Source: Candidatus Woesearchaeota archaeon (GTDB lineage: Archaea > Nanobdellota > Nanobdellia > Woesearchaeales > WAPJ01). From it: 64,000 nucleotides of DNA. The translations under genes were made by a program, and so were the position numbers. The notes beneath the pieces were generated by a model. It did not search any database. It saw only the letters and a list, made by a program, of their open reading frames with translations, and had not been told where the DNA came from. Below, one piece after another: positions 3,961 through 50,057 of this stretch. Location of the stretch: the NCBI GenBank assembly GCA_047602885.1, contig JBLKOQ010000001.1, positions 10,016 through 74,015 of the forward strand. Direction: 5' to 3'. Numbering within the stretch: the stretch's first letter is position 1; each line of letters starts with the position of its first letter.

Positions 3961-3961
3961 T

Positions 3962-8287: not shown

Positions 8288-8288
8288 A

Positions 8289-9143: not shown

Positions 9144-9152
9144 GATGATACT

Positions 9153-17187: not shown

Positions 17188-17903
17188 GACTCTGTCTTAA
17201 TCTTATCCATAGGAACGCCCATACCCACCAGTATTTGGACAGACAATGATATGAGTCCTTTAGGCCCGCATATAAAATAGATTTTTTCAGCAGGATTACT
17301 AAACATTCTCATAAAATATTTCTCGTTAATTATGCCCTTAACAATAAAGTCATTAATATCAATATCCTGATTAGTAATAAAATGAGTAACCATCAGATTA
17401 TCCTTATGAGCGCAGTATTCCATAAGCTGTTCTCTATAACAAATATCTCCCATAGTCTTATTGCTAAGTAGCAGGAACATTCTATTATTCTTATTATTGT
17501 CAATATAATATTTTATTAGCGACCTATAAGGCACTACTCCCGAGCCTCCTGCTATCATGACAATATCAGAGTCTATAGACTCATCCCTAATATAGGGGAG
17601 TCCCAACGGTCCTAACACTTCTATCTCATCGCCTACATTAAGCTTGAAGAGGGCATGAGTAAAAGAGCCTACTAGCTTGACACTAATCATAATATTGTCC
17701 TCTGTAGGACTAGTGGCAATGCTATAAGACCTCTTCCCAATATCTTCCTGGCCTTTAATAGTACAATTAATAAAATGCCCCGGCCTATAATCGAATAATG
17801 GAGCGCCATCACTAGGAGAGAGTATGAAACTCTTCATATTATGGGTTTCGTCAACAATACTATTAATAGTATAATATTTTTTGGATACAGGATAGCGTTT
17901 CAC
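17178..17903 (-). CDS. FNR-like FAD/NAD(P)-binding oxidoreductase
   Basis: FAD motif RSYSIATSP and NAD(P) motif MIAGGSGVVP; 241 aa. Confidence 0.65.
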   Translation of the reverse strand: MKRYPVSKKYYTINSIVDETHNMKSFILSPSDGAPLFDYRPGHFINCTIKGQEDIGKRSYSIATSPTEDNIMISVKLVGSFTHALFKLNVGDEIEVLGPLGLPYIRDESIDSDIVMIAGGSGVVPYRSLIKYYIDNNKNNRMFLLLSNKTMGDICYREQLMEYCAHKDNLMVTHFITNQDIDINDFIVKGIINEKYFMRMFSNPAEKIYFICGPKGLISLSVQILVGMGVPMDKIKTESWG

Positions 17904-19940: not shown

Positions 19941-22277
19941 ATGCAGAAAAGGTTTATATACCCTAATAATGTTGATTCTGATATGCCTTCAAAAAAGACT
20001 GTACAGGAACAACTAGATTTTCTAAGGCGGGAGGCAGGTAAGAACAACAGATTATTGGAAAAGGTGCTGTCTCAACAAAAAGAGCAGCATAAGAGAATAG
20101 CTGTATTGGAGAAGAAGGTTGGGAGTCCTAATAAGGATACTGTAATAGATGATTCGCCTACAACATTGAATCAGTATGACAATCAGGAAATACCACAATC
20201 AAGCTCTAGCAGCGTTCCTGTCAGCGCAATACTCCTAATAATATTCGGAGCACTATTGACATTAACAGGAATAGGAGCCCTTATAGGAATACCATTAGTA
20301 GTATGGGGCATTATAATAGTATCCAGAAACCAGGAGCAGGAAGGAAGAGCAGAATCTGTTGAAGAAAAGCCAATAAAAGATGATAATCTTAAGATAACTC
20401 CCAAGCCAGTAGAAGAAAAGCCCAAGACTTCATTAGAAGAAGATGTAGGGATAAAATGGTTTGCCAGAATAGGAATAATAGCATTAGTTATAGGAATAGG
20501 ATTCTTCATAAAATATGCTATAGACATGGAATGGATAGGACACTTGACAAGGATACTGCTAGGAGCATTACTGGGCATAGGAATGATTATGGTAGGAAAG
20601 ATATCAAGCATGAAAGAAAGGTATGAGTTATGGGGCAAGACACTCATGGGAGGAGGCATAGCAGTATTATACTTTGCAGTATACGCATCATACCATTTTG
20701 AGGAGTACAGACAAGCGATAGGAATAGGACAATACACCAACATAGTATTGTTAAGCATCATAGTATTAGTGGCAATATGGCTTTCCATAAGAGACAACAG
20801 CCAGATAATAGCGTCAGAATCATTCTTCTTGGGGTTCCTCACAGCACTACTAAGCACAGAATACACTATAATGACTATGATGTATTGCATACTGCTTGCA
20901 TTAGGAATAGTAATAGTTACAGCATACAAGGGATGGATAGGCATAGGAATAGGAGGAGCGATAGCATCATACATATCATATATTGTATGGGCGTATCCAA
21001 GACAAGAATTCATACTCGGAATAATATTCCTGTCAATACTTTACACTGCATTTACGATACAATCAATAATACTGTCCAAGAAAAAAGAGCTGTCCACTTA
21101 TGGGATGATAATATACATTGCAAACAGCATCACCTTCTTCTTCCTGGGGTATTTGAGGGTAGAAGGGTCGTATCCTGAGCATACAGCATTATTACCATTA
21201 GCACTATTCATAATACACTGGATAATAGCATTATACTACAAGATAAAAGACAATAGGCTGATGAGAGATGCCAGCCTATACTTATCAGTATCATACATTG
21301 TAATGACAGTGTTATTGCACTTCAACAATGATTATATTACATTATTATGGGCTATGATAGCAGTAATAACAGCATATGCGTACAAGAGTTCTAAGATACA
21401 TAGTTTAAGATATTCTGCTTACGCATTATCATTATTAGTATTATTAAAGATACTATTATATGACATAATAAACCTGCAGGCCTATACTCCTACAGATATT
21501 ATTGGCAGCATGAGACTGTGGTCTATGCTAGGAGGAATAGGGGCATTATACATTATTAGGAGTATACTGGCGAGCGATAAAAGCATTAGGGAAGGAAAAG
21601 AAAAAAGTATTATAGAAGTGTATTCGTGGACTGCATTATCATTACTTGTAATAATGATACTGCTAGAGTTTTCAAGCCAATACACATTATTCGTTACAAT
21701 AGCGCTAGGAGCACTGTCATTAGCATTGTTGTTCAACAGCAGAGCCAATAATATGATGCTATACCAGGCTACAGCAGTATCAAGTGTTATGATACTAAAA
21801 ATATTATCATACGATACTCTAACGCTAAAAACATATTCTGAACATGTTCTGCTTGCTGAAACTACGCTGTTGGCATATCTTACAGGAATAACAGTATTAT
21901 ACATTCAGAGCAGAATGCTATTAGGCAAGGAGGGCGATGATGCCATAAGGAAATCATTAGGAATAGGATATTCTTACGCTGCAACACTTCTTGGAGTAGT
22001 AATGATAATGATAGAAATGCAGGGTTACTGGATATCTATAGGATGGAGCATATACGCGCTAATACTAATGGCTGTAGGAATAAGCACTGGCGACAAACAA
22101 TTAAGATTCCAAGGAATAATAGTATTTGGCCTTACAATAATCAAAGTGTTCCTATTCGATACGAGGAACTTAGAGACAATATACAGGACCATAAGCTATA
22201 CCGTGCTAGGCGCACTGCTCCTTGCAGTATCATTCCTCTATGCAAGATACAAGGAGAAGCTAAAAGAAATATTGTAG
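19941..22277 (+). CDS. large polytopic membrane protein with N-terminal cytoplasmic coiled-coil (DUF2339-like architecture); start may be 19983
   Basis: About 20 predicted TM helices after a charged N-terminal segment; 778 aa. Confidence 0.5.
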   Translation: MQKRFIYPNNVDSDMPSKKTVQEQLDFLRREAGKNNRLLEKVLSQQKEQHKRIAVLEKKVGSPNKDTVIDDSPTTLNQYDNQEIPQSSSSSVPVSAILLIIFGALLTLTGIGALIGIPLVVWGIIIVSRNQEQEGRAESVEEKPIKDDNLKITPKPVEEKPKTSLEEDVGIKWFARIGIIALVIGIGFFIKYAIDMEWIGHLTRILLGALLGIGMIMVGKISSMKERYELWGKTLMGGGIAVLYFAVYASYHFEEYRQAIGIGQYTNIVLLSIIVLVAIWLSIRDNSQIIASESFFLGFLTALLSTEYTIMTMMYCILLALGIVIVTAYKGWIGIGIGGAIASYISYIVWAYPRQEFILGIIFLSILYTAFTIQSIILSKKKELSTYGMIIYIANSITFFFLGYLRVEGSYPEHTALLPLALFIIHWIIALYYKIKDNRLMRDASLYLSVSYIVMTVLLHFNNDYITLLWAMIAVITAYAYKSSKIHSLRYSAYALSLLVLLKILLYDIINLQAYTPTDIIGSMRLWSMLGGIGALYIIRSILASDKSIREGKEKSIIEVYSWTALSLLVIMILLEFSSQYTLFVTIALGALSLALLFNSRANNMMLYQATAVSSVMILKILSYDTLTLKTYSEHVLLAETTLLAYLTGITVLYIQSRMLLGKEGDDAIRKSLGIGYSYAATLLGVVMIMIEMQGYWISIGWSIYALILMAVGISTGDKQLRFQGIIVFGLTIIKVFLFDTRNLETIYRTISYTVLGALLLAVSFLYARYKEKLKEIL
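19953..19960 (+). promoter_or_regulatory. TATA box (TTTATATA), suggesting the downstream membrane protein gene starts at the Met at 19983
   Basis: Canonical A/T box 23-30 nt upstream of the ATG at 19983. Confidence 0.3.
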
Positions 22278-35421: not shown

Positions 35422-38400
35422 TTGGGCTTGAAACAAGTTGTAGTGCAAGTAACGATAGTAGTAGTTATAATAGCTGCGCTTATATTCACATTCTTTAGTA
35501 TTGGAGAGCCTACAATTACAGGTTATGCTGTATTTGAGAGCAGTGTTAGTAATGTCAGTTATGACGTGGAAAGGGTAGTGTTGCCACAAGAAACTTATAC
35601 TATTCAGTTGGAAGATAATGTTGTTGTAAGAGGAATAGTAATTAATGGTTATTATATTGCAAGCAAAGATTCTAGTATTATTGCAAGGCTTGATGAAGGG
35701 ACTATTAGTCATGAATTGAGGTTGAGAAGCAATGTTATTACTGGCATGGCTATCGGTGCTGGAGAAGTTGAGAGTGGTATGATAGAAGAAGACTTGGCTA
35801 ATAGGACTTTGTTGAGGTATGGTGATGGTCCTTATGATATCGATAATGATGGAATGGTAGGGAGACAAGGAGCAGTAGACTATTATGTTGAAACTAATGC
35901 TTCTTGTGTATTATGGAGTATTGTAGGGGATGATGTTGACCTATTCTGTCAGGGAACAATAGAATGCTGTGACAGTTATCTATTGGAGAGCATGGATGAC
36001 AATCCCAATTATTTAGTGTTGGATAGGCAAAGAGCAGGTGCTGACAGAGGAGAAGTATTGGCCAAAGCTGACGGTTATGATTTTAGTAGAATGTTGCCTT
36101 ATGATTTTACTGGTGCTGAGGAGAGACTGGTAAGATTGGATGATGTTTGTTTGGGAAGTTGTAATGTTAGGATGCAGAGCAGTAGTATAAGGATAGAGAG
36201 CAGTGCTTATTTGCATATAGACAGGATTATAGTATATTATGATGATTTGCCAGACGATGAGATATTTGATACAGAGGATGGCAACATAATAGAAGAAGTA
36301 TTACCAGAAAAAAGAGTCATAAGAGAAGAGATGATAGAATATATAGTGTATGAGTCAGAAGGAGGTATTATTGGAAGAACCGTCTCAGAACTAAAAAGTC
36401 ATTATGGTCTTAGCAGGGCATCTGAACGTTCAGCAAAGATATTTTCAATGGATTATGAGCATATCAGTGAAGAGGAAGAAACAGAGTATACCGAAGGGAT
36501 TAATGCTCATATAATTAGAGTATCATCAGAGCTTCTAAATCTAGTAACAGAAGAAAGCGTAAGAATCATAATATTAAATGAATCAGGAATATACTCAGAA
36601 TACGCCAATAATTTATCAGAGCTAAACGAAATACTACACTCTAAAGAAGTTATAACAGCTAGTATCGACAGACAAATAGAATTGTTAACACAAGATACTC
36701 TTAATGCATCAGGGTTTATATCAGTATATAATGAGTATGAGGTTTCTGGTTCTGGTGTTCGTGTATGTATTGTAGATACGGGTGTATCGGGTCATGTGGT
36801 TGAGAATATATCATATACTGGTGTCAATGTTCTTGATGGTACCGATGACATAATGGATTACCATGGCCATGGTACTCTTGTTTCGTACCCTTTGATTCGT
36901 GCATTACCTGATGCCCATTATGTGATTGTAAAGGCTTTGGATGATACTGGGATAGGATATGAGTCTGATGTTATTTCTGGATTGGATGCGTGTGCTGAAC
37001 ATGATGTTGATGTTGTTTCTCTTTCTATAGGAGCTGGATTGTATGATGGGTACTGTGATACTAACCTTGTATCAGAGCGTGTGAATGAACTTGTGTCTGA
37101 AGGAGTCTTGGTAGTTTCTGCTGCAGGTAATGAGGCTGGTCCTTATTTGAAGGCTCCTTCATGCGCTTCCTCTGCTCTTGCAGTTATTGCTTACACTGAT
37201 GATTCGTTATGGTATCAGTCTTCATACTTGGAAGGTCATGCAGTATTTGCCGCTCCTGGTGTTGTTGAGACTATTGGTCCTGATGGTTCTGTGGTTTTAT
37301 CTTCTGGTACGTCTATGAGTGTTCCTTTTGTTAGTGCAGCTGCTGGTTTATTGGTTGAGTATACTAATGACACGGGACTAGTGTTACGTAACAGACTGGT
37401 TGGCACAGGTGATCTGCTTGGTGATGAGTTCTTGTTTTCTCGTCTGAATGTTTCGAGGGCTTTTTCGGGTGAGATTACGAATGAGTTGTTGTATAATATT
37501 AGCGAGGGCGTTGAGGTAGAGGGGACTGTATATTATCGTGGTACGAGTTTTATTGCAGGAACTATCACCACAGGAAATGGGCATTCGTGTGGTATTCGTG
37601 CTGTTGATGGTCGTGTTTTGTGCTGGGGTAGGAATAACGTGGGTCAAATTGGCGATGGTACAACTGCAGGTCCTCGTACGAATCCTACTTTAACTACTGA
37701 TACTTCTGCATATACTTTTATTTCATCAGGCGAACAACATTCGTGTGGTATTCGTGCTAATGATTCTCGTGTTTTGTGCTGGGGTAGTAACGGGAATGGT
37801 GTGCTTGGTGATGGTACTACTGTTCAGCGTGAAAATCCTACTTTGATTAATGATTCTTCAGCGTATCTTACACTTGGGTTAGGTCAAGGTCATTCGTGTG
37901 GTATTCGTGCTAATGATTCTCGTGTTTTGTGCTGGGGTTGGAATGGGAATGGTCGACTTGGTGACGGTACGGATGAAGCTCGTTGGAATCCTACATTGAC
38001 TTCTGATACTTCTGCATACAGCGGAATAACTGCAGGTGCCCACTACTCGTGTGGTATTCGTGCTAATGATTCTCGTGTTTTGTGCTGGGGCACTAATAAT
38101 TATGGTCAGCTTGGTGATGGTACAGATGTTGTTCGTTGGAATCCTACATTGACTTCTGATACTTCCGCTTACCTACATGTTTCTGGAGGAGGTTGGCATT
38201 CGTGTGGTATTCGTGCTAGTGATTCTCGTGTTTTGTGCTGGGGTAGGAATAACGTGGGTCAGATTGGCGATGGTACTACCACCACTCCTCGATTGAATCC
38301 CACTTTAACTACTAACACGTCTGCGCATGGTACTGTTTCTGCTGGAAACGATTATTCGTGTGGTATTCGTGTCAATGATTCTCGTGTTTTGTGCTGGGGT

Positions 38401-41400
38401 GCTAATGATTATGGTCGGCTTGGTGATGGTACTACTACAGGTCCTCGTACAAATCCCACTTTGACTGCAGACTCTTCTGCATATGTAGCCGTTTCAGCGG
38501 GGGATTGGCACACTTGTGGTATAAGATCTTACGATGGTCGTGTGTTGTGTTGGGGGTATAACGAGTTCGGTCAGATTGGCGATGGTACCACTACGACTCC
38601 ACGTCAAAATCCAACGCTTACAAGCAACATGGCTCCATTCGCCGAAATTCCTTGGGTCTTTACAACATGCGAAGCAACTGGTCGCACTGGTCCTACTCAA
38701 GGTATGTGTGACGATGCATACGAATACTCTTATCTGAACAATAGTGTAACTGTATCTTCAGGCATACAATCATGGACTGTTCCTGAGACGGGATGGTATA
38801 ATGTTACTGCAGTTGGAGCTCAAGGAGGATACGGTGGGAGAACGGGTGTTGGGGGATACGGCGCTCTCATTTCAGGTGCTTTCTACTTCGAAGAGGGAGA
38901 GACAATCAATGTTCTCGTTGGTCAGAAAGGTGGAGATAACTCGTTTCGACCGGCAGGTGGTGGTGGAAGTGCAGTGTGGAAGGATACTGGAACCGAACTC
39001 CTCATCGTCGCTGGAGGTGGAGGAGCGTATGCAGTTGGAACAACGACCACCTACCAGGACCGAGCACACGCGAGCAACACAACAAGTGGGAAGGATGGAT
39101 TTGGTGCCACGGCTCAGAGCGTGGGTGGAACCGGAGGTCTTGGAGGTGCCGGAACAGGTAACCGAGCCTCTGGTGGTGGAGGATGGTTTACTGATGGTGG
39201 ACAGGGCACGACGGCTGACAGTCGTGGCCGATCCCTCTCAGGAGGGGGTCTTGGAGGTGGTGGTGCTGTAGCTGACGGTGGATTTGGTGGTGGCGGAGCG
39301 ACCGATAGCACGACGACATGGGGTGCTGCTTCTGGTGGTGGTGGGTACTCTGGTGGTGGGGGTGGGTATTCTAACACAAACGATGCTGAAGGAGCTGGGG
39401 GCGGTGGAGGATCATACAATTCTGGGTTGTTCCAGTATAACGTCGGAGGAGAGAACGCTGATCATGGCTTGGTCATTATCGAGCCATACGGTGATGTCTC
39501 ATTACTCACCGTGGGAGTTACTCCTTCTCCCGAAGCGAACGCTACCGATGATCTTCTTGGATATTGTACGAGTGATGTCATCGATGGATTCGACCGGATC
39601 GACTATGAGTGGAGACGTGACGGCATAGTCGAGTACATGGGAACGTACTTTAGAGCAGATACGATCACAGCGCATGAAGCTCACACTTGTGGTATTCGTG
39701 CTAATGATTCTCGTGTGTTATGTTGGGGACGCGCGGGTAGTGGTGAGATTGGGAATGGAAGCAAGCTACCACAAGTGCTTAATCCAACACTCACCTCTGA
39801 TACTGATCCTTACCTTCAAGTGAGCGTCGGATTCACTCATTCGTGTGGTATCCGCTATGACGGAAGAGTGCTCTGCTGGGGAAACAACGCTGAAGGGCAG
39901 TTGGGAACAAACGATACGACTGAACGACTCGTTCCTACTTTGATTGCGGATGATGCTGCCTACCATTCCCTCAGCGCAGGATACCGGATGAATTGTGCGA
40001 TACGTGCTAATGATTCTCGTGTGTTATGTTGGGGTGACAATGTATTCTCTCAACTCGGCAGTGGAGGTGGATCGGTGAGCGTTCCGAGGCTCATCAATGA
40101 TACCGCTTCCTACCTGATGGTTTCCACTTACAAGTACCACGCGTGTGGTATTCGTGCTAATGATTCTCGTGTGTTGTGCTGGGGGATGAACTGGTACGGT
40201 CAGGGTGGTAATGGAACAACTGACGAGTTCGTGTCATCCGAGACTCCGACCCTCACGACCGATAGTTCACCATATGTAATGGTAACAACAGGTGCCTCTC
40301 ATACGTGTGGTATTCGTGCTAGTGATTCTCGCGTGTTGTGCTGGGGTCGTAATAATAATGGGCAGCTTGGAATCGGTTCGAGCGGTACAAATGTCGGTAA
40401 CCCCACAACGACTTCAGATTCATCTGCATATCACTACATAGATGCTGGTTGGCAGTTCTCATGTGGCATCAGATCGTCTGATAATAGAGGTCTTTGTTGG
40501 GGGGATAATGGTGAGGATAAACTTGGTATCGGAACGACCGGTAATCGTGAAAACCCTACACTTATATCTGCTTCGTTTGCGATATCGTTGATTACTGCTG
40601 GTGAACGCCATGGGTGTGTGGTTCGCTCTTCGAATGGGCGTGTGTACTGCTGGGGACAAACTGCTGAAGGACGTACAGGAGATGGGGTAGGTATTGGTAC
40701 TGAGCACACACCGACGCTCACAACAGACACTTCCTCGTATGCGTACTTACCTGCTATTGCCTCTGGCGTGCAGTATAACCTCTCAACACTTGACTCAACG
40801 ATAACGAATGGTGGAGACTCATGGACGTTCTCATGCCGGATTACAGACGGTCGAACGACCTATCCATACGAGGAGAGTGCTACGATAACGATTGCAAACA
40901 TTATTCCGATTTATTCAAAGTTTGATGGTTCAACAACGAACTTTTCTGATGCTAGTGTTGTTCCTGACCTTTCAAGCGTGAGCAATCCGATTCTTGAGAT
41001 ATCCACGTTCGGACGCATCACATGGAAAGGTATGGTAAACGTTCCTAGTTCAGATTATGATTCTCATGTGCATATTGGTTATCGGTACATTTTTGTTAAT
41101 AGTAGCGCGTTGCATTCATCTCATGATTCGGGTTCGAATTTGAGCTTTTATGATACGGGCTTCGTGCATGCTCCTGTCATCCTCAAAGATAGTTCTGTGT
41201 GTGAACAACCCTTGTGTAACATGACTGGATTTGTTGATGGTTACGTGAATTACTCAGTGGCTGGTTTCTCAAACTACACGCTTGATTCTAATAGTCGATT
41301 GGAGATCTGGGATGGTACTGATCCTCAAGGAGGAAATAATTCGTATGAGGTTGGTGAATCGGTGCCTTTCTATGCAAATTATTCGAATCTGACTTCTGGT

Positions 41401-44400
41401 GAACCGATTTCGGGTTCGGGGAACGATTGTGAGATCCAATTTGATACTGGGAGCGGGTATGGGAGTTTTATAGAGATGGAATTTAACGCAACAAGTAACT
41501 TGTACGAGTACAACACCACATTTGGATCTGCAGGGACGTTCAGTTATAACGTGAGTTGCACTAGCACCCAAGGATATGAGAACCTGAGCGTGACTAATGA
41601 GTTCACATACAATCCTGCAAACTGTTTTGACAATTCGACGAGTCCTATACCAATTTGTACATGTACTGATCTTAGCAGGATGTGGGAGAACCTTACAGCA
41701 AACTATGAATTGCAGAATAATATAGACTGTAGTGATACTATTAATTGGAATGATGATGAGGGATGGCTGCCTGTAGGGACAACAGGTACGGGTTTTAGTG
41801 GTACGCTGGATGGGCAGGGATATAATATTACTGACTTGTTCATTGCTCGAAATAATGTTGGTTATCAAGGTTTGTTTGGTCAGTTAACTACAGGAGGAAG
41901 CATTACTGATTTAGGTTTGGTGAATGCGAATATCACCATAAAAGACACACTCAGTATAGTGACTCCATATATTGGGATTCTTGTAGGATATATCGATGGA
42001 GGCAGTGTCTCTGGATCTTATGTCACAAATAGTATTCTCTATAGTGATTTTCCCTCTACTGGTGGTCTTATAGGAGAAATGAGTGGTGGTAGTGTTGTCT
42101 CATCTTCTTTTGTTAGTGGTTCTAGTGTTTCTTCTTCTACTAGTAATGTTGGTGGTCTTATAGGAAGAATGAGTGGTGGTAGTGTGTCATCTTCTTATAC
42201 GGTGGATTCTAGTGTTTCTTCTACTGGTAGTAGTGTTGGTGGTCTTGTAGGATATATGCTGAGTGGTAGTGTTGTTTCATCGTCTTATACTATTGGTTCT
42301 AATGTTTCTTCTACTAGTACTCGGGTTGGTGGTCTCGTAGGAAGAATGTGGAGTGGTTCTAGTATTGTTGATTCTTACAGTACTAGTAATGTTTATGCTC
42401 TTGCAGGAGAAAACTTACAATATCATGGTGGACTAGTAGGACAAAACTATAGGGGAGTGATAAACAATTCTTATAGTACAGGAATAGTTAATAGTACACA
42501 TGATGATAGTGGTGGTTTTGTAGGAAGCGTAGATACAGGAGCTGCGACTTATGGTATGTATGGTAACTTCTGGGATAACCAGACAAGCGGTCGTAGTACT
42601 AGTGCTGGTGATAATGTAACAGGACTTACTACAGCGCAGATGTATAATATCAGTCAGTTCTTAGCGGCAGATTGGAATATTAGTGAGATTAGCGGTTATA
42701 ATAATGAGACTTGGTTTATTGATGATGGTAATGATTATCCTAGATTATGGTTTGAGTTTGATCTTGCTTTATTGGATATTGAGTCTGTAGGCATTATTCC
42801 AAGTCCTTTTGCTTTGGATGATGAGAATCTCGTAGGGTATTGTAGTGCTACTGGTAGTGAGAATTTTACGAGGTTGGATTATTTGTGGTATAAGGATGAT
42901 GTAGTGGAGTATGGGGGTGCTTATTTCAAGGAAGGAAGTATTAGTGCTGGTGGGGAGTTTTCTTGTGGTGTTCGTGCTAATGATTCTCGTTTGTTGTGTT
43001 GGGGTGCTAATTTTGTTGGTAAGTTGGGTATTGGTAATACTACTCATATGTATAGTCCTGTTTTGGTTGATTCTTCTGATGCTTTTTTGAGTGTTTCTGT
43101 GGGTGTTTCTCATTCTTGTGGTGTTCGTGCTAATGATTCTCGTGTTTTGTGTTGGGGGCTAAATAGTGAGGGGCAGTTGGGTATTGGTAATACTACTGAT
43201 ATGTTTAGTCCTGTTTTGGTTGATTCTTCTGATGCTTTTTTGAGTGTTTCTTTAGGTAGTTTTCATTCTTGTGGTGTTCGTGCTAATGATTCTCGTGTTT
43301 TGTGCTGGGGTGGTAATATTTATGGTCAGTTGGGTGTTGGTAATACTACTGATATGTTTAGTCCTGTTTTGGTTGATTCTTCTGATGCTTTTTTGAGTGT
43401 TTCTTTAGGTAGTTTTCATTCTTGTGGTGTTCGTGCTAATGATTCTCGTGTTTTGTGTTGGGGTGGTAATTGGGTTGGTCAGTTGGGTGTTGGTAGCGCT
43501 GTTTATGATTCGTGTTTTGATGGTTATGAATATTACGATTGTAGTTTGAATCCTGTTTTGGTTGATTCTTCTGATGCTTTTTTGAGTGTTATGGTGGGTG
43601 TTTCTCATTCTTGTGGTGTTAGGGCGAGTGATTCTCGTTTGTTGTGTTGGGGTGCTAATGCTAATGGTCAGTTGGGTGTTGGTAATACTACTGATATGTT
43701 TAGTCCTGTTTTGGTTGATTCTTCTGATGCTTTTTTGAGTGTTGGTCTTGGTTTTGGACATTCTTGTGGTGTTAGGGCGAGTGATTCTCGTGTTTTGTGT
43801 TGGGGACGTAATTTTGGAGGTCAGTTGGGTGTTGGTAATACTACTAGTCCTATTATGGTTCCTGTTTTGGTTGATTCTTCTGATGCTTTTTTGAGTGTTG
43901 ATGGTGGTTTTGGTGGTGGTTTTGGTGAGCAGCATACGTGTGGTGTTCGTGCTGTTGATGGTCGTGTTTTGTGTTGGGGTGATGGTTCTTTTGGTGCTTT
44001 GGGAACAGGCAATACTAGTTCTCAGTTGAGTCCGACTCTTACTATTGATTCGAGCAGTTATCTTAGGGGGCTTTCTCCGCAGACGACTTATAATGTTTCT
44101 TTGATAGGGAGTGGGTTGACTAGTTTGGGGGAGGAGTGGAAGCTTAGTTGTCGCGCTGTAAATGTTACTAGTGCGGGGGATTTTGTTAATTCTACTGTTA
44201 CTACGATTGATGAGGGTGAAGAGGGTTTGGATTGTGGTGTTATCGATGAGCCTGGAGAGTATATTATGAATGGCGACCTTGCGGCTACCGGAACTTGTAT
44301 TACTATTAATGTTAGTGATGTTTCATTAGATTGTCAGGGTCATACGATCAACTACTCTACAAACGATGACGAGGGCTACGGTATCCTGATATGGAGCCAG

Positions 44401-47400
44401 AGCGGGACGGTCGAAAACGTGAGTATCGCGAACTGTAACATCATCAAAGAGAGTCCTGGAGGGAGCTCAGGGAGTAGGCGCCCAGCTATCCTCGGATACG
44501 GCTACTCAGGTACTCCTTCAGGAGGTTTCACAAAATCAGGTGATGAGCATACTGTTGAGCAAGTAAATATATCGAACGTTACTATCACGACCGAGGGAGA
44601 TTATGCTCGAGGCATATTTGTCTTAAGTGGTCATACTTGGAGTGTCGAAGATGTCTCTATCACAACGTATGGAGATGATGCCCGAGGAATCTACAGCGAG
44701 AACTCTGATCATTGGAGTCTCAGGAGAGTTGATATCACGACCTTTGGAACTGTAGGGATAGGACTGTATACGATCGATGCAAACCACTACTATCTCAAGG
44801 ACATCGATATCACTGCTGCGAGCGCAGGCATGTGGATCCGCACGGGAAGTTCGAACTGGCGGGCAGAGAACATTTCGATAAATGCTACGCTTCAAGGTAT
44901 CGCGACATCGGACGGAGGTATGGCTCACATGAGTTTTTACAACTCTACGATCCACTCATCAGGAAGCCGGGGATTAGATACCAATCAAGGTACAGATAAC
45001 ATCAGCTTCTACGATTCTATTATCACCGCTCCATCAAGTGACGATGTATACATGCGTCTTGGTGATGCGAGTCGGCGTGTTACGTTCGTCAACGTGACTT
45101 TCAACCCTTCCAGTGTCACGTTCCATGACTCGACCTCAGGATTCCTCGACGTTGGATGGTACGTCGACTTTCTCGTAAACGATACTCTAAGTTATCGAGT
45201 TGAGAATGCTAATATTAGTTGGCAGGATTCTGGTGTTATGAGCAGTTTGAACCCTAACAGTACTGGTTGGAAATTAACTGATAGTGGTGGATTGTCTCTA
45301 AGAAATATATTGTATGAGTACTCGCAGAACCAAACTGCTAGGTACTATCATACTAACTATAGCTTCGACATAAGTAGCCCATCATACGCTTCCCTTGTTG
45401 GAGCGTCTAGGAACTTCACTACAAATACACAATTGGATTTTACTATAGAGCCATTGTCGTTGGAGTGTGGTGTTATTAGCGAGCCTGGCTCTTATGTTAT
45501 GACTACTAATCTTACTGCTACAGGCACGTGTTTCACTATTAATGTTAGTGATGTAATACTGGATTGTCAGGATTATACTATTAATTATTCGACTGCTGAT
45601 GAGGGTTATGGTATTTTGATTTGGAGTCAGTCTTCTAATGTGGATAATGTTACGATACAGAACTGTGTTGTTGTGCAGGGTTCTGGTGAGGGTGATGTGA
45701 ATAGTGCGCGTCCTGGTATTTTGGGTTGGGGTGTTAATAATGGTCCGAGTGGTGGTTTGTCGAGTGTTAGTGGTATTTTTTATGAGGTTACTAATGTTTT
45801 GGTTGTGGATTCTAGTATAGTAACATTGGGTGATCGTTCGGATGCTATTAGGGGTGCGGTTTCGTATGACTGGGATGTTGTGGGTGTGAATGTTTCTACT
45901 GCTGGTCAGCTTGCTTCGGGTGTTTTTGGTACTTTTACGGGGGGTTGGTTGTTGTCTGGTGTTGATTCTTTTACTACCGGTGATAATTCTAGGGGTTTTG
46001 CTAGTTGGGATTCTGTTGATTGGGAGATTGTGGATTCTCGTTCTGAGGTTACTACTTTTTATTCTTATCCTATTCGTGCTGAGGAGGGTTCTCATGGATG
46101 GGTTCTGTCCAATGTTTCTCTTATCTCTGATGGTTTTGAGTCTGATGGGCTTCATGTGATTGATTCGGATAATTGGATGGTTGAGGGTCTTTTTGTTTCA
46201 TCATCGGGCACTCAGGCTGATGCTTTTTATTTAGAGGATTCTGATGGTTGGATGGTTTATGATTCTGATTTGTCTAGTGGGTCTGCGTTTGATGTTGTTC
46301 TTAATCTTAGTGATTCTTCGTATCGTGTTGGTTTTGTGAATACGAGTTTTGATCATTCTAGCGTGTCTCTTCTTACTCCGGGCTGGCTTGATAGGGGTTG
46401 GTGGGTGGATGCGTATGTGAATGATAGTCTTGGCAGTCCTGTAGAGGATGCTAATGTCTCTTGGAATGATGCTGGTATTATTAGTGGGAATCCTAGTAGT
46501 AGTGGTTGGAATGTTACTGATGATAGTGGACTTAGTGTTAGGAATGTCTTGTTTGAATATTCTGAGAATCAAACTGCGAGATATTATAATACTAATTATA
46601 CTATTAATGTTAGTCATGAGGATTATGATGATCTTATAGGAGAGTCAAGGAATTTTACGGGTAATACGCAGTTGAACTTTACTTTTTTGGGTGAGTCTTT
46701 AGAGTGCGGTGTTATTAGTGAGCCTGGCGAGTATGTTATGACTTCTGACTTGTCTGCTGCTGGTACTTGTTTTACTATTAATGTTTCTGATGTTAGTTTG
46801 GATTGTGGGGGTCATACGATTAACTATAGTACTGGTGAGGAGGGTTATGGTATTTTGATTTGGAGCCAGGGTGGGTTGGTTGAGAATGTGAATGTTAGTA
46901 ATTGTAATATTGTTAAGGATAGTGAGGAAGGTAATAGTTCGAGTCTTAGGCCTGCCTTACTTGTTTATGGTCGTAGTGCTGTTCCTAGTGGTTCTATTAG
47001 TGGTATTGCGGGTACTGCTCATTATGTAGATAATGTGTCTATTAATAATGTTAATGCTAGTAGTAAGGGAAATTATAGTAGTGGGATTTTTATAGTGCGA
47101 GGATGGTATTCTTCTATTAGTAATGTTATGGTTGATACTGATGGTAATTGGAGTTTTGGGATATGGGGCGATTACTCTTCTTATTGGAATATTTATAATA
47201 CTAGTATTTTTTCGTTAGGGCTGTTTAATGTTGGTCTGTATGGGGTGGATTCTAATTTTTGGGTTTTAGATAGTTTAAATGTAGATGTTGAGTTCAATGA
47301 TGGTCATGGTATTATTGGTTTTCGGTCAAATTCTTGGATTCTTTATAATGTTACTGTTATTGCTGACGGTTCTACAGTTAGGGGAATATCTCTATGGGAT

Positions 47401-48882
47401 CTTAATAACTGGACTGTTATAGACTCTTTTATTGATAGTACTTTTTATGATATTAATATGGAGTTAGATCATAGTACTCGTCAAGCTTTTTTTATTAATA
47501 CAAGCTTTAATAAGAGTAGTGTGTATTTTACTAATGCTAATGCTGGTTGGCTTAATCGTGGTTGGTGGGTTGATTCGTATGTTAATGATACTATAGGGAA
47601 TCCAATTAGTGGTGCTAATGTGAGTTGGGTGGATAATGGTAGTCTTGCAAGCAATCCTTCTGCTAGTGGTTATAGTTTGACTTTGGTTGATGGGACGGTG
47701 AGGAATGCCATATTCGAATATTCTCAGAACCAGACTCATACGTTTGAGCATAATAATTATACTTTTAATGCGAGCAAGGAAGGATTCTTACATAGTGATA
47801 TTGTTCAAAATATAACTGATAATGCCTTCATTTACTTTACATTAGAAACCGATGACATTGATCCTCCGACATGGTCTGATCCTTGGGATAACAGTACTGA
47901 TACTAGCCCTAGGATTAATGAGAATATAAGGATGAACTTAACACTAAACGATGATGTTGACTTGTTCAGCTATACTTTTAGTTGGAATGGTACTGGTTCA
48001 TGGACTAATGATAGTATACAGTTAATATCAGGCACAGAGCATATTTTAAGCGTTATTAAGCAAGTAGGATTGCCTAGAGACAATACTATAGGATGGAGAG
48101 TATACTTTAATGACAGTGCAGAAAAGACAAACATCTCTGATATATTCACATTCACTGTAAAGAACACTCCTCCTGATGTTCCTATACTAAATTATCCTCT
48201 AAACGACAGTGATATTTACAATAGAACGCCATTATTCAACTGGACGGGATTCGATGCAGACTCTGATGAATTAACATACAACCTCACGATATACTGCATA
48301 GGAGGATGCAGTGCTGACAACAGGCATTATCAAGGAATAACAACTAACGAATTCCAGCTTGAAGAAGAACTCCAGTTCCTATACGATGACGGATACTCAT
48401 ACTTGTGGAGCGTTAATGCATGCGACCAATATGAATGCTCAGAATACTCCCAAAACAACACGTTCACTCTCTCAAGCCTCTTATCAGTCAGATTCACACA
48501 AAACGATTCGGACTTCGGCATGATGCAGCTCGGACAAACCAATAGTACTGAGGATAACAGCCCAAACCCTCTTGTACTGGTAAACGAAGGAAACGTAAAA
48601 GTAAATATTAGCTTCTACGCCCAAACCCCGTTATTTGAAAGAGCTGCACTGCCAAGCCCATTCTTTGAGGCAAGAATAAGGCCATTAATAGGAAATTATG
48701 GCATAGACACTAATACGAGCTGGTTTGACCTGGACGATTCAGAAAACCCTGCTCACATGCTAAGAAAACTAAATTATACAACAGACAATAATGCCACTAT
48801 AGACTTAAGAGTAACAGTTCCTATAGACGAGCCTCCAGCAGAGAGGAGCAGTACTATTACAGCAATGGTGGTGATGTCATGA
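35422..48882 (+). CDS. giant secreted multidomain surface protein (4486 aa): signal anchor, S8 subtilase, RCC1 block 1, ALK-like glycine-rich domain, RCC1 block 2, GLUG repeats, RCC1 block 3, three tandem beta-helix modules, fn3-like C-terminus
   Basis: Uninterrupted 13.46-kb ORF; apparent TTG start (in-frame stop just upstream). Catalytic triad motifs IVDTG / HGHGT / GTSMSVPFVSAAAG. More than 20 copies of an HSCG(I/V)RANDSRVLCWG...G.LG.G motif. Three about 410-aa modules each starting L(D/E)CGVI(D/S)EPG.Y(I/V)M. Confidence 0.85.
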   Translation: MGLKQVVVQVTIVVVIIAALIFTFFSIGEPTITGYAVFESSVSNVSYDVERVVLPQETYTIQLEDNVVVRGIVINGYYIASKDSSIIARLDEGTISHELRLRSNVITGMAIGAGEVESGMIEEDLANRTLLRYGDGPYDIDNDGMVGRQGAVDYYVETNASCVLWSIVGDDVDLFCQGTIECCDSYLLESMDDNPNYLVLDRQRAGADRGEVLAKADGYDFSRMLPYDFTGAEERLVRLDDVCLGSCNVRMQSSSIRIESSAYLHIDRIIVYYDDLPDDEIFDTEDGNIIEEVLPEKRVIREEMIEYIVYESEGGIIGRTVSELKSHYGLSRASERSAKIFSMDYEHISEEEETEYTEGINAHIIRVSSELLNLVTEESVRIIILNESGIYSEYANNLSELNEILHSKEVITASIDRQIELLTQDTLNASGFISVYNEYEVSGSGVRVCIVDTGVSGHVVENISYTGVNVLDGTDDIMDYHGHGTLVSYPLIRALPDAHYVIVKALDDTGIGYESDVISGLDACAEHDVDVVSLSIGAGLYDGYCDTNLVSERVNELVSEGVLVVSAAGNEAGPYLKAPSCASSALAVIAYTDDSLWYQSSYLEGHAVFAAPGVVETIGPDGSVVLSSGTSMSVPFVSAAAGLLVEYTNDTGLVLRNRLVGTGDLLGDEFLFSRLNVSRAFSGEITNELLYNISEGVEVEGTVYYRGTSFIAGTITTGNGHSCGIRAVDGRVLCWGRNNVGQIGDGTTAGPRTNPTLTTDTSAYTFISSGEQHSCGIRANDSRVLCWGSNGNGVLGDGTTVQRENPTLINDSSAYLTLGLGQGHSCGIRANDSRVLCWGWNGNGRLGDGTDEARWNPTLTSDTSAYSGITAGAHYSCGIRANDSRVLCWGTNNYGQLGDGTDVVRWNPTLTSDTSAYLHVSGGGWHSCGIRASDSRVLCWGRNNVGQIGDGTTTTPRLNPTLTTNTSAHGTVSAGNDYSCGIRVNDSRVLCWGANDYGRLGDGTTTGPRTNPTLTADSSAYVAVSAGDWHTCGIRSYDGRVLCWGYNEFGQIGDGTTTTPRQNPTLTSNMAPFAEIPWVFTTCEATGRTGPTQGMCDDAYEYSYLNNSVTVSSGIQSWTVPETGWYNVTAVGAQGGYGGRTGVGGYGALISGAFYFEEGETINVLVGQKGGDNSFRPAGGGGSAVWKDTGTELLIVAGGGGAYAVGTTTTYQDRAHASNTTSGKDGFGATAQSVGGTGGLGGAGTGNRASGGGGWFTDGGQGTTADSRGRSLSGGGLGGGGAVADGGFGGGGATDSTTTWGAASGGGGYSGGGGGYSNTNDAEGAGGGGGSYNSGLFQYNVGGENADHGLVIIEPYGDVSLLTVGVTPSPEANATDDLLGYCTSDVIDGFDRIDYEWRRDGIVEYMGTYFRADTITAHEAHTCGIRANDSRVLCWGRAGSGEIGNGSKLPQVLNPTLTSDTDPYLQVSVGFTHSCGIRYDGRVLCWGNNAEGQLGTNDTTERLVPTLIADDAAYHSLSAGYRMNCAIRANDSRVLCWGDNVFSQLGSGGGSVSVPRLINDTASYLMVSTYKYHACGIRANDSRVLCWGMNWYGQGGNGTTDEFVSSETPTLTTDSSPYVMVTTGASHTCGIRASDSRVLCWGRNNNGQLGIGSSGTNVGNPTTTSDSSAYHYIDAGWQFSCGIRSSDNRGLCWGDNGEDKLGIGTTGNRENPTLISASFAISLITAGERHGCVVRSSNGRVYCWGQTAEGRTGDGVGIGTEHTPTLTTDTSSYAYLPAIASGVQYNLSTLDSTITNGGDSWTFSCRITDGRTTYPYEESATITIANIIPIYSKFDGSTTNFSDASVVPDLSSVSNPILEISTFGRITWKGMVNVPSSDYDSHVHIGYRYIFVNSSALHSSHDSGSNLSFYDTGFVHAPVILKDSSVCEQPLCNMTGFVDGYVNYSVAGFSNYTLDSNSRLEIWDGTDPQGGNNSYEVGESVPFYANYSNLTSGEPISGSGNDCEIQFDTGSGYGSFIEMEFNATSNLYEYNTTFGSAGTFSYNVSCTSTQGYENLSVTNEFTYNPANCFDNSTSPIPICTCTDLSRMWENLTANYELQNNIDCSDTINWNDDEGWLPVGTTGTGFSGTLDGQGYNITDLFIARNNVGYQGLFGQLTTGGSITDLGLVNANITIKDTLSIVTPYIGILVGYIDGGSVSGSYVTNSILYSDFPSTGGLIGEMSGGSVVSSSFVSGSSVSSSTSNVGGLIGRMSGGSVSSSYTVDSSVSSTGSSVGGLVGYMLSGSVVSSSYTIGSNVSSTSTRVGGLVGRMWSGSSIVDSYSTSNVYALAGENLQYHGGLVGQNYRGVINNSYSTGIVNSTHDDSGGFVGSVDTGAATYGMYGNFWDNQTSGRSTSAGDNVTGLTTAQMYNISQFLAADWNISEISGYNNETWFIDDGNDYPRLWFEFDLALLDIESVGIIPSPFALDDENLVGYCSATGSENFTRLDYLWYKDDVVEYGGAYFKEGSISAGGEFSCGVRANDSRLLCWGANFVGKLGIGNTTHMYSPVLVDSSDAFLSVSVGVSHSCGVRANDSRVLCWGLNSEGQLGIGNTTDMFSPVLVDSSDAFLSVSLGSFHSCGVRANDSRVLCWGGNIYGQLGVGNTTDMFSPVLVDSSDAFLSVSLGSFHSCGVRANDSRVLCWGGNWVGQLGVGSAVYDSCFDGYEYYDCSLNPVLVDSSDAFLSVMVGVSHSCGVRASDSRLLCWGANANGQLGVGNTTDMFSPVLVDSSDAFLSVGLGFGHSCGVRASDSRVLCWGRNFGGQLGVGNTTSPIMVPVLVDSSDAFLSVDGGFGGGFGEQHTCGVRAVDGRVLCWGDGSFGALGTGNTSSQLSPTLTIDSSSYLRGLSPQTTYNVSLIGSGLTSLGEEWKLSCRAVNVTSAGDFVNSTVTTIDEGEEGLDCGVIDEPGEYIMNGDLAATGTCITINVSDVSLDCQGHTINYSTNDDEGYGILIWSQSGTVENVSIANCNIIKESPGGSSGSRRPAILGYGYSGTPSGGFTKSGDEHTVEQVNISNVTITTEGDYARGIFVLSGHTWSVEDVSITTYGDDARGIYSENSDHWSLRRVDITTFGTVGIGLYTIDANHYYLKDIDITAASAGMWIRTGSSNWRAENISINATLQGIATSDGGMAHMSFYNSTIHSSGSRGLDTNQGTDNISFYDSIITAPSSDDVYMRLGDASRRVTFVNVTFNPSSVTFHDSTSGFLDVGWYVDFLVNDTLSYRVENANISWQDSGVMSSLNPNSTGWKLTDSGGLSLRNILYEYSQNQTARYYHTNYSFDISSPSYASLVGASRNFTTNTQLDFTIEPLSLECGVISEPGSYVMTTNLTATGTCFTINVSDVILDCQDYTINYSTADEGYGILIWSQSSNVDNVTIQNCVVVQGSGEGDVNSARPGILGWGVNNGPSGGLSSVSGIFYEVTNVLVVDSSIVTLGDRSDAIRGAVSYDWDVVGVNVSTAGQLASGVFGTFTGGWLLSGVDSFTTGDNSRGFASWDSVDWEIVDSRSEVTTFYSYPIRAEEGSHGWVLSNVSLISDGFESDGLHVIDSDNWMVEGLFVSSSGTQADAFYLEDSDGWMVYDSDLSSGSAFDVVLNLSDSSYRVGFVNTSFDHSSVSLLTPGWLDRGWWVDAYVNDSLGSPVEDANVSWNDAGIISGNPSSSGWNVTDDSGLSVRNVLFEYSENQTARYYNTNYTINVSHEDYDDLIGESRNFTGNTQLNFTFLGESLECGVISEPGEYVMTSDLSAAGTCFTINVSDVSLDCGGHTINYSTGEEGYGILIWSQGGLVENVNVSNCNIVKDSEEGNSSSLRPALLVYGRSAVPSGSISGIAGTAHYVDNVSINNVNASSKGNYSSGIFIVRGWYSSISNVMVDTDGNWSFGIWGDYSSYWNIYNTSIFSLGLFNVGLYGVDSNFWVLDSLNVDVEFNDGHGIIGFRSNSWILYNVTVIADGSTVRGISLWDLNNWTVIDSFIDSTFYDINMELDHSTRQAFFINTSFNKSSVYFTNANAGWLNRGWWVDSYVNDTIGNPISGANVSWVDNGSLASNPSASGYSLTLVDGTVRNAIFEYSQNQTHTFEHNNYTFNASKEGFLHSDIVQNITDNAFIYFTLETDDIDPPTWSDPWDNSTDTSPRINENIRMNLTLNDDVDLFSYTFSWNGTGSWTNDSIQLISGTEHILSVIKQVGLPRDNTIGWRVYFNDSAEKTNISDIFTFTVKNTPPDVPILNYPLNDSDIYNRTPLFNWTGFDADSDELTYNLTIYCIGGCSADNRHYQGITTNEFQLEEELQFLYDDGYSYLWSVNACDQYECSEYSQNNTFTLSSLLSVRFTQNDSDFGMMQLGQTNSTEDNSPNPLVLVNEGNVKVNISFYAQTPLFERAALPSPFFEARIRPLIGNYGIDTNTSWFDLDDSENPAHMLRKLNYTTDNNATIDLRVTVPIDEPPAERSSTITAMVVMS
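36700..37450 (+). other. subtilisin-like S8 peptidase domain within the giant protein
   Basis: Asp near 36775 (CIVDTG), His at 36868-36870 (HGHGT), Ser at 37312-37314 (GTSMS). Confidence 0.7.
37560..38620 (+). repeat. RCC1 block 1: seven tandem about 150-156-bp repeats (CATTCGTGTGGTATTCGTGCTAATGATTCTCGTGTTTTGTGCTGGGGT core), CGT/GGT/GTT codon regime
   Basis: Core recurs at 37582, 37738, 37891, 38041, 38206, 38352, 38509. Confidence 0.75.
38740..39500 (+). other. glycine-rich domain resembling the ALK/LTK-type glycine-rich domain (Pfam Gly_rich-like): VLVGQKGG ... LLIVAGGGGAY plus poly-Gly tracts
   Basis: Motifs INVLVGQKGGD, GGGGSAVW, LLIVAGGGGAYA, multiple GGGG(Y/S); GC-richer codon regime. 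Confidence 0.45.
39530..40740 (+). other. RCC1 block 2 (about 8 repeats) preceded by a linker homologous to the one before block 3; GC-richer codon regime
   Basis: Repeats HTCGIRANDSRVLCWG ...; linker VTPSPEANATDDLLGYCTSD ... parallels IIPSPFALDDENLVGYCSAT ... at 42790. Confidence 0.6.
41790..42750 (+). other. GLUG-motif repeat region (GGL(I/V)G(R/E/Y)M(S/L/W)GGSV ... x6)
   Basis: Repeated VGGLIGRMSGGSVSSS-type units about 25 aa long; opening GTLDGQGYNITDLF is typical of GLUG domains. Confidence 0.5.
42950..44010 (+). repeat. RCC1 block 3: seven tandem about 153-180-bp repeats; units at 43216-43371 and 43372-43527 are nearly identical
   Basis: CATTCTTGTGGTGTTCGTGC core at 42958, 43111, 43264, 43426, 43606, 43759, 43934; GATTCTTCTGATGCTTTTTTGAGTGTT recurs 6 times. 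Confidence 0.75.
44200..47830 (+). other. three tandem about 1.2-kb homologous modules (A 44200-45430, B 45430-46690, C 46690-47830) with right-handed beta-helix (pectate-lyase-like) character
   Basis: Each begins L(D/E)CGVI(D/S)EPG(E/S)Y(I/V)M ... TINVSDV(S/I)LDC(Q/G)(G/D)(H/Y)TINYST ... EGYGILIWSQ and ends ... ARYY(H/N)TNY. Module A is in the GC-richer regime, B and C in the GT-rich regime. Confidence 0.55.
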
Positions 48883-50057
48883 AAAAAGCACTGCTATTGC
48901 TGATAATACTATTAACTGCAATCATGATAATAGAAGAATCAGTAGCATTCGGAGTGAGTCCAGGCAGAAAACAGTATGACTACCAGCCACAACTAGACGG
49001 TTACATAAACATCATAAACAGCCATAAGGAATCAGGAGAACTCATAATAGTCGCTAGAGGAGAATTATCAGAATACGTAATATTCAGCGAAAGGACAATA
49101 AAACTGGATCCCAACGTCCACGAAAATAGGGTTCATTATACTGTAAGAGTGCCCCAAGACAAGTTAGAGCCAGGCTCCAACGAAATAGATGTTTATATAA
49201 TGCCGATGACATTCGATACAGACCAGTCCACAGTATCAGCGCAGGCAGGAATAATCTTTAGAATAATAGTAAACCTTCCTTACGACGGGGCTCATGCTAC
49301 AGGAAGAATAGACTATAACAGCAGAACTAACACCATAATAATACCCGTAACAAATGTAGGAACACAAAGAATAGAAGATGCAAGAGCATCAGTAAGCATT
49401 ATAGGGCCTACAGGAGATATCATATCATCAAAATCGTCATCATCCAAAACCATAGGAATAAGAGAAACCATAGAATACAACATACCTTTAGATGGCATTA
49501 GCAACGGGCATTATCTTGCAAGAGCAACCATAGAATATGACAATAAAATACTAGTAATAGAAAGGAATATAGCGGTGGGAACAGCATTAATAGCAGTGCA
49601 ATCGATAGAAATGCCTGAATTCAGGTATGGTCATATAAATAGGATAGACATTAACGTAAAGAGCGAGTGGAACCAAGTAATAGAGGACGCTTATGCCATG
49701 ATAGAAATAATAGGACCTGCAGGAACACTAATAGAAAGGATAAAAACACCAGGAGAAAGAATAGAGCCTTACAGGACAAGCATACTAAGAGGATACTGGG
49801 ACACTGCAGGAATAACTCCAGGAGACCACCAGATAATAGCCACAGCAGTAGGAGAAGGAGGAAATGATACCAAAAGAACCATGGTTACCATAACCCCTAC
49901 AGGAATAGTAATGCAACAGCCTACAGGAAGAGTCGCAGGAGAAGGGGGGATGGGAATACTAGGAGTAGCACTCGCATTCCTGATAATAGCAAACATTATA
50001 CTGTTTGCGATAATACTATCAGGAAGAAACAAAAACAAAAAGAATAAAAAGCAGTAA
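48879..50057 (+). CDS. secreted protein with C-terminal TM anchor and basic tail, translationally coupled to the giant gene
   Basis: ATGA overlap with the giant ORF stop; N-terminal signal; C-terminal GMGILGVALAFLIIANIILFAIILSGRNKNKKNKKQ. Confidence 0.55.
   Translation: MKKALLLLIILLTAIMIIEESVAFGVSPGRKQYDYQPQLDGYINIINSHKESGELIIVARGELSEYVIFSERTIKLDPNVHENRVHYTVRVPQDKLEPGSNEIDVYIMPMTFDTDQSTVSAQAGIIFRIIVNLPYDGAHATGRIDYNSRTNTIIIPVTNVGTQRIEDARASVSIIGPTGDIISSKSSSSKTIGIRETIEYNIPLDGISNGHYLARATIEYDNKILVIERNIAVGTALIAVQSIEMPEFRYGHINRIDINVKSEWNQVIEDAYAMIEIIGPAGTLIERIKTPGERIEPYRTSILRGYWDTAGITPGDHQIIATAVGEGGNDTKRTMVTITPTGIVMQQPTGRVAGEGGMGILGVALAFLIIANIILFAIILSGRNKNKKNKKQ

Follow-up and report, generated by a model that had tools for sequence, protein, structure and literature searches.

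When the fold of the ligand-binding domain of human ALK and LTK was solved in 2021, it was regarded as exotic. This TG domain combines a tumour necrosis factor (TNF)-like β-sandwich with a lattice of 14 polyglycine-II (pGII) helices and is the ligand-binding region of both receptors, as stated in PDB entry titles. The 14 pGII segments of human ALK have been defined experimentally and lie within residues 740-956 (PMC13243192). A comparable arrangement is found in two small phage proteins, the tail fibre gp24 of cyanophage Pam3 (7YPX) and the tail wing brush gp33 of mycobacteriophage Bxb1 (9D93), in both of which the domain is located at the C-terminal tip. Pam3 gp24 is trimeric and contains 12 Gly-rich motifs. 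Recognition of the host receptor was proposed for its TNF-like and Gly-rich domains, and their likeness to nematode ALK was noted (PMC9608196). In DPANN archaea, the nanohaloarchaeal SPEARE-type giants (e.g. SVXNc_0300) consist of a giant membrane-anchored ectodomain and a C-terminal membrane-embedded VirB4/TraG-like ATPase, and a role in host interaction was proposed for them (PMC10266531). Here we describe an ALK/LTK-type glycine-rich domain (GRD) in a giant open reading frame (ORF) of 4,486 amino acids (aa) from Candidatus Woesearchaeota archaeon. The ORF is encoded on contig JBLKOQ010000001.1, within a stretch of 64,000 nucleotides (nt; positions 10,016 to 74,015) that was analysed as a whole and is called the window. 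The domain and its most conserved part have the following window coordinates.

38650-39495, + strand: ALK/LTK-type TG domain (TNF-like β-sandwich plus 14-helix pGII lattice), aa 1077-1358
38650-38937, + strand: best-conserved N-terminal part of the domain, aa 1077-1172, WVFTTCEATGRTGPTQGMCDDAY ... VLVGQKGGD, 48% identical to human ALK

A phmmer search against PDB sequences matched the domain to human ALK ectodomain fragments (E = 2.7e-17), LTK (E = 7.4e-15), and C. elegans SCD-2 (E = 2.3e-5). It was the 95 non-Gly residues at the N-terminus that scored, and the Gly-rich remainder was collinear and was penalised for its composition. Because the significance came from the non-Gly part, the resemblance to ALK is not a matter of chance Gly-richness. 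When a 46-sequence family alignment drawn from the relatives (A1, also used as the AlphaFold2 alignment) served as the search profile, ALK was matched with E = 2.8e-40, and profile positions 35-318 were placed on chain residues 35-338, covering the whole domain. Identity to human ALK was 48% over the first ~95 aa and 39% over 250 columns of the profile-guided alignment, in which each of the 14 human pGII segments had an aligned counterpart in the archaeal domain (14/14). The two Cys residues of the archaeal domain, Cys1083 and Cys1096, aligned with the first two Cys of ALK, and the N-terminal motif FTxCGxxGxxGPxQxxC was kept together with this Cys pair (WVFTTCEATGRTGPTQGMC in the archaeon, WLFTTCGASGPHGPTQAQC in ALK).

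A preliminary description of the window had placed an ALK/LTK-like glycine-rich domain at 38740-39500 on the strength of five motifs, INVLVGQKGGD, GGGGSAVW, LLIVAGGGGAYA, GGGGWFTDGG, and SGGGGYSGGGGGY. All five motifs were present in frame 1 of this range, and the assignment was borne out by the phmmer and profile matches to ALK, by the fold model, and by all sequence tests of family membership other than Pfam. The borders had to be moved, with the folded domain beginning 90 nt upstream at 38650 (PWVFTTCEATGRTGPTQ..., which belongs to the best-conserved part) and ending at ~39495 (...HGLVIIEPYGD), as judged from the profile alignment and from the profile of the predicted local distance difference test (pLDDT). 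The window contained only one GRD copy. We consider it nearly certain that this domain is a true and complete homolog of the metazoan ALK/LTK TG domain.

The AlphaFold2 model, predicted from alignment A1 with no templates, had a pLDDT of 91.7 and a predicted template modelling (TM) score of 0.88, and residues 1-282 of the segment were well ordered. The Gly-rich core was modelled with confidence, yet DSSP assigned it neither helix nor strand, as expected of pGII helices. In a Foldseek comparison with the PDB, the top 21 matches were all ALK, LTK, or SCD-2, with E ~1e-16 and TM scores of 0.62-0.73 for human ALK/LTK and E ~2e-8 and TM scores of 0.45-0.51 for SCD-2. The Pam3 cyanophage fibre and TNF-alpha followed at noise level. 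Structures of the ALK GRD became available in late 2021, presumably later than the AlphaFold2 training cut-off, so the model would not have been copied from them. The predicted model has the TNF-like β-sandwich with an inserted pGII helix lattice that defines the fold, consistent with the earlier expectation of a folded polyglycine-helix domain rather than disorder.

Compared with the human TG domain (e.g. PDB 7LRZ, 7NX1, 7N00), the archaeal copy has no EGF-like module, C-terminal transmembrane helix, or kinase downstream. It also lacks the ~33-residue Cys-containing insert that follows VGQxG in ALK and is richer in Gly (29% vs 21% in ALK/LTK). Unlike in ALK/LTK, its neighbours on both sides are RCC1 propellers, within a predicted surface protein of 4,486 aa. 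An ALK/LTK-type receptor kinase was ruled out, since Pfam and NCBIfam scans gave no kinase or EGF family and the only hydrophobic segment is N-terminal; the homology is confined to the domain. To our knowledge, no ALKAL-like ligand is known for the archaeal domain. In contrast to the small Pam3 and Bxb1 proteins, the giant cellular protein of the archaeon has its copy at an internal position, and this copy resembles ALK much more than it does the solved phage structures. A phage receptor-binding protein of the Pam3 gp24 type was likewise rejected for the window gene, which is cellular, encodes 4,486 aa, and has no phage genes in its vicinity. Members of the Pfam family PF12810 (ALK_LTK_GRD) also occur in secreted or surface multidomain proteins, but the window copy differs in being under the detection limit of the Pfam model and in its flanking RCC1 propellers, which are rare in the family.

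The features of the giant gene and of the ORF that follows it are given below, in window coordinates where available.

35422-48882, + strand: giant ORF, 4,486 aa, identical to NCBI MFT4308908.1 ('hypothetical protein ACMXYL_00265', Candidatus Woesearchaeota archaeon metagenome-assembled genome, MAG)
35437-35505, + strand: hydrophobic segment, aa ~6-28, VVVQVTIVVVIIAALIFTF..., signal anchor or signal peptide
aa 40-440: N-terminal region, no family match
36748-37377, + strand: subtilisin-like S8 peptidase domain, aa 443-652, Pfam PF00082 E = 2.3e-21, NCBIfam mycosin-like
37564-38643, + strand: RCC1-like β-propeller 1, 7 blades, aa 715-1074, directly abutting the GRD (Pfam and blade map)
39496-39660, + strand: ~55-aa module, aa 1359-1413, recurring ahead of propeller 3
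39664-40743, + strand: RCC1-like β-propeller 2, 7 blades, aa 1415-1774 (Pfam, self-comparison)
41680-42477, + strand: GLUG-motif repeats, aa ~2087-2352, Pfam PF07581 E = 3.5e-12, NCBIfam ZmpA-like stretch
42940-44064, + strand: RCC1-like β-propeller 3, aa 2507-2881 (Pfam, self-comparison)
44221-47883, + strand: three tandem ~410-aa repeats, aa 2934-3346, 3347-3757, and 3758-4154 (self-comparison)
aa ~4155-4486: C-terminal region, no family match
48879-50057, + strand: 392-aa ORF, NCBI MFT4308909.1 hypothetical protein, its ATG overlapping the stop codon of the giant (ATGA)

The hydropathy of the giant peaked at aa 6 (Kyte-Doolittle 19-aa window maximum of 2.92), with every other window at or below 1.6. 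No second membrane segment was found by hydropathy, and no kinase, EGF, or ATPase family was found in the Pfam and NCBIfam scans of the giant. The S8 domain matched Savinase 1c9j (E = 3e-20) with the DTG, HGT, GTSM, and GN motifs aligned. With the Asp/His/Ser triad and the oxyanion Asn conserved, the giant's subtilisin-type protease is probably active, judging from these residues. The RCC1 families were identified with Pfam PF25390 (6e-160), PF00415 (1.5e-121), and also PF13540, and the 21 blades of ~51 aa each fell into three groups of seven. The domain had been described as lying between two RCC1 propellers, which proved correct: seven-blade propellers occupy aa 715-1074 and 1415-1774, the second one following the ~55-aa linker module.

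Internal repeats of the giant were found by chunked self-comparison, in which aa 1358-1436 matched aa 2447-2528. When inspected by eye, propellers 2 and 3 each appeared to be inserted in a split ~90-aa Ig-like module, located approximately at 39496-39660 plus 40744-40900 and at 42760-42939 plus 44065-44220. The N-half reads 'V.I.PSP...DDL.GYC....D..R.DY.W..D' and the C-half 'YN.S......GD.W..SCR...'. The repeat of the N-half comes from the self-comparison and the split was seen by eye in the sequence, so that the split Ig-like module is an apparent one. The ~410-aa repeats have starts that are 50-78% identical and open with 'LECGVISEPGEYVMT..L.A.GTCFTINVSDV.LDC.GHTINYS'. By eye they resemble right-handed β-helix units, and a similar motif is present in the Woesearchaeota locus L011. 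The ~410-aa repeats, the N-terminal 400 aa, aa 1775-2086, and the C-terminal 330 aa had no match in Pfam, NCBIfam, or PDB sequences.

The giant is acidic (D+E 515 vs K+R 206), with only 0.8% Lys and with 84 Cys, and contains 136 N-x-S/T sequons vs 59.5 expected from its composition (~2.3-fold). Such a composition would fit an extracellular protein with disulfides and heavy N-glycosylation. The giant resembles the SPEARE-type proteins in being a very large, N-terminally targeted DPANN protein with β-propellers and Ig-like modules. However, it has no sequence orthology to them, and their C-terminal membrane segment was not detected in it. The intact catalytic triad of its S8 protease is a further difference from these giants, and other DPANN giants also carry GRDs. 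The downstream 392-aa ORF is probably co-translated or co-transcribed with the giant gene, and it had no family in Pfam or NCBIfam and no PDB sequence match.

The family to which the domain belongs is very large, mostly unannotated, and both prokaryotic and viral. A search of 5.8 billion proteins gave more than 3,000 relatives among the matches listed, and about one third of the best 120 carried a precomputed PF12810 match. A profile search of 1.84 billion cluster representatives returned at least 15,545 proteins at E <= 1e-3, including 4,324 at E <= 1e-30; the best matches were giants of up to 6,308 aa, with up to nine matched stretches per protein. The window domain was 40-54% identical to members of the family. 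Among GTDB species genomes there were at least 51 loci, mostly from Bacteroidota, Myxococcota, Marinimicrobia, Verrucomicrobiota, Bdellovibrio-like bacteria, and Micavibrio. Seven of the GTDB matches listed were DPANN loci (two Woesearchaeota, one unclassified archaeon, three Nanohalarchaeota, and one Iainarchaeum), and the archaeal copies were again located in very large ORFs. The Woesearchaeota locus L004 has an ORF of at least 2,087 aa with at least three interspersed GRDs, and locus L006 of an uncultured archaeon has an ORF of at least 2,120 aa with at least four GRDs and, by eye, a C-terminal transmembrane segment; both ORFs run off the fetched loci. The GRD was combined with β-helix-like repeats (by eye) in L011 and with GLUG-like repeats in L042.

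Giants with multiple GRD copies were common, with up to eight copies counted among the retrieved proteins. The co-domains of the family included Por_Secre_tail, PEP-CTERM, the N-methyl pilin motif (PF07963, in several bacterial relatives), Ig, PKD, and Fn3, a set that is typical of exported proteins. The best composition-corrected full-length match was an archaeal protein of 1,270 aa with LamG and GRD (P0161, locus L102, 5001-8813, 49% identity). It is flanked by an archaellin-type gene with FlaC/D/E upstream on one side and by FlaH-, FlaI-, and FlaJ-like genes on the other, which suggests a filament-associated adhesin in an archaellum or type-IV-pilus-like operon. Another close match, P0128, is a type IX secretion system (T9SS) cargo protein of Bacteroidota. 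Through PF12810 matches and UniProt names, prokaryotic and viral members of the family are already recognised in the databases. UniProt automatically names several phage and giant-virus members 'receptor protein-tyrosine kinase', apparently only through this domain.

The preliminary description had considered the domain unusual between two RCC1 propellers of an archaeal protein. Its presence in an archaeon is not exceptional, as several DPANN lineages carry it, but its pairing with RCC1 is rare. RCC1 blades were found in only three of the 353 retrieved family proteins (the window protein, P0241, and P0284) and in none of the 99 fetched loci. No protein in the 5.8-billion set covered the blade-GRD-blade junction, the best coverage being ~60%, all of it on the GRD. 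In P0284, a 669-aa protein from a JGI metagenome, the GRD is located between blades 6 and 7 of a lipoprotein-type RCC1 propeller and has no Cys-containing N-terminal motif, which represents a different way of joining the same two modules.

Two close relatives are located in phage tail modules, P0003 (52% identity, 356 aa) and P0001 (53% identity, 366 aa), and both place the GRD at the C-terminal tip. P0003 is encoded after a tail assembly protein and a J-like tail protein, and its N-terminal 'virion structural' module recurs in the paralog next to it, as is usual for interchangeable receptor-binding proteins. P0001 is near a tail-fibre-like gene. Being small, with a C-terminal GRD and within a tail gene module, both fit the description of a phage receptor-binding protein of this type, a virion protein whose N-terminal module serves attachment or trimerisation. 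The window GRD also matched phrog_22713, which has no assigned function, with E = 3.3e-25. In IMG/VR, at least 45 loci were found, giant-virus MAGs among them. In BFVD there were 78 structural matches (best TM score 0.75 with 35% identity), which included cyanophage virion and giant-virus proteins.

Taken as a whole, a complete TG domain acting as the receptor-binding head of a Woesearchaeota surface adhesin-plus-protease is the likely explanation of these observations. Together, the glycine lattice and the sandwich would make up a rigid head that binds a molecule on a different cell or surface, and adhesion by the protease-bearing protein would be the joint task of the GRD and the propellers next to it. 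The giant may be displayed extracellularly and N-glycosylated, held by its single N-terminal hydrophobic anchor. For an episymbiotic DPANN archaeon, the target could plausibly be the host envelope. We infer the extracellular display from the single N-terminal hydrophobic segment, the excess of sequons, and the precedent of the DPANN giants (PMC10266531). The binding function and the target are likewise inferred, the role as a recognition head being suggested by the ligand-binding region of ALK/LTK, the phage tail relatives, the proposal made for Pam3, and the proposals made for DPANN giants. Considered by itself, an adhesin or receptor-binding role of the archaeal GRD is somewhat favoured.

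Several points weigh against this explanation. Pfam PF12810 gave no match to the 304-aa segment, as the whole hmmscan reported no family even at E <= 10, either with the segment by itself or as a member of A1, and an NCBIfam scan of the segment gave no match. The preliminary description had named PF12810 as the model to search with; it failed for the window copy and succeeded for close homologs, 22 of the 46 A1 members matching when scanned singly (best 1.6e-11). Given the phmmer matches, the profile match to ALK, and the PF12810 matches of the relatives, we read the miss as a problem of sensitivity. PF12810 misses about half of this family, including the window copy, probably because of putative composition-bias filtering. 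Furthermore, the structure of the domain is a predicted one, and tblastn against 50,697 GenBank phage genomes gave nothing at E <= 1e-5. The link to phages comes only from context and fold, with the Foldseek match to Pam3 being marginal (E = 0.04). The window giant has no VirB4/TraG-type ATPase like that of the nanohaloarchaeal giants and hence is not that kind of device. No experiment ties any prokaryotic member of the family to a ligand, and we found no paper on prokaryotic or archaeal ALK-GRD homologs. The episymbiotic lifestyle and the host of this MAG are assumed.

An alternative to a receptor-binding head is a purely structural domain, in which a rigid, protease-resistant glycine lattice would serve as a spacer or scaffold in an envelope or matrix protein with no specific ligand. 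Many members have two to eight tandem copies interleaved with Ig-like modules in the style of structural repeats, spacer modules are frequent in giant surface proteins, and nothing in our analysis identifies a ligand. However, every studied case of the fold is a recognition device, either the ligand-binding region of ALK/LTK or a distal tail appendage of a phage, and the small phage proteins carry the domain at the C-terminal tip. The window protein, moreover, has a single copy between two propellers and no repeat array, and we consider the scaffold unlikely. Instead of a biological receptor, the flat pGII surface could bind ice, a mineral, or a crystalline surface of another kind, as in the snow-flea antifreeze protein, which is among the pGII bundles (cited in PMC13243192), and the family is abundant in aquatic and marine metagenomes. 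This is highly improbable, as no search returned sequence or fold similarity to antifreeze proteins and the fold is a TNF-like/GRD combination, not a free pGII bundle. A disordered, low-complexity Gly-rich linker with a merely compositional resemblance to ALK would agree with the 29% Gly, the lack of a Pfam match, and the composition-bias penalty that HMMER put on the Gly-rich part. It was rejected on the order of the AlphaFold2 model and the fold comparison, the sequence tests refuting it as well, and we give it virtually no credence.

A different concern is whether the contig or the gene is archaeal at all, as opposed to a mis-binned bacterial or viral fragment, or whether the GRD was recently acquired by horizontal transfer. 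The nearest GRD relatives include bacterial and phage-context proteins with 50-54% identity, compared with 33-46% for other DPANN copies. The GC content was 50.7% in 38-40 kb vs 33-44% across most of the window, and GC at third codon positions (GC3) was 0.369 in the domain vs 0.311 in the remainder of the gene. Over non-Gly codons, GC3 was 0.44 in the GRD (200 codons) vs 0.325 in the remainder, a modest difference. However, the GC peak came mostly from codon positions 1 and 2, i.e. from Gly codons (GGN), and a foreign origin of the GRD inferred from this peak was rejected as unsupported. Seven of the 10 window proteins looked up in NCBI, spread across the window and including the giant, exactly matched records of one 85-kb Woesearchaeota MAG contig, and the window carries a PriL-like archaeal primase gene at 62130-63731. 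These two results indicate an archaeal origin and uphold the 'archaeal' label of the preliminary description. In addition, P0161, the full-length match that ranked best after composition correction, comes from an archaeon and is located in an archaellum operon, and other Woesearchaeota MAGs carry the domain in similar giants. A non-archaeal origin or a recent acquisition is therefore very unlikely. Three shorter ORFs in other frames overlap the domain (38801-39271, + strand; 39114-39419, - strand; 39278-39628, + strand). Because the long frame has highly significant homology, they are by-products of the GGN-rich sequence.

Other parts of the window were also annotated. A carotenoid cluster of four genes was found at 6001-9932 (+ strand), encoding a CrtI/CrtD-type desaturase (NCBIfam CrtID, 677 bits vs a cutoff of 640), a phytoene synthase, a UbiA prenyltransferase, and a Caroten_synth (CruF-like) protein. 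The cluster resembles the haloarchaeal gene set for the C50 carotenoid bacterioruberin, which is unexpected for the reduced genome of a DPANN archaeon (Woesearchaeota). Further probable envelope proteins were a VWA-domain protein (1-1677, cut by the window start), a 692-aa PF09826 Beta_propel protein (11121-13202, - strand), a DUF11-repeat protein (17903-19744, - strand), and a DUF2339 membrane protein (19941-22277, + strand). The Rfam scan of the window gave no match.

Together, these results show a complete and remarkably similar copy of the ALK-type domain, with 41% identity and all 14 polyglycine helices aligned, in a probable surface giant of a DPANN archaeon. The domain is real but a fairly ordinary module, in a rare arrangement within an unannotated protein, and it does not represent a new kind of system. 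Two annotation problems were flagged: PF12810 misses about half of the family, and UniProt calls phage members 'receptor protein-tyrosine kinase'. The conservation between the archaeon and human ALK is striking, and the family is large and experimentally untouched. With at least 15,000 clusters, it recurs on devices that contact cells, namely phage tails, pilus-type loci, T9SS cargo, and DPANN giants. For the otherwise opaque 4,486-aa protein, the GRD provides a concrete candidate recognition module.

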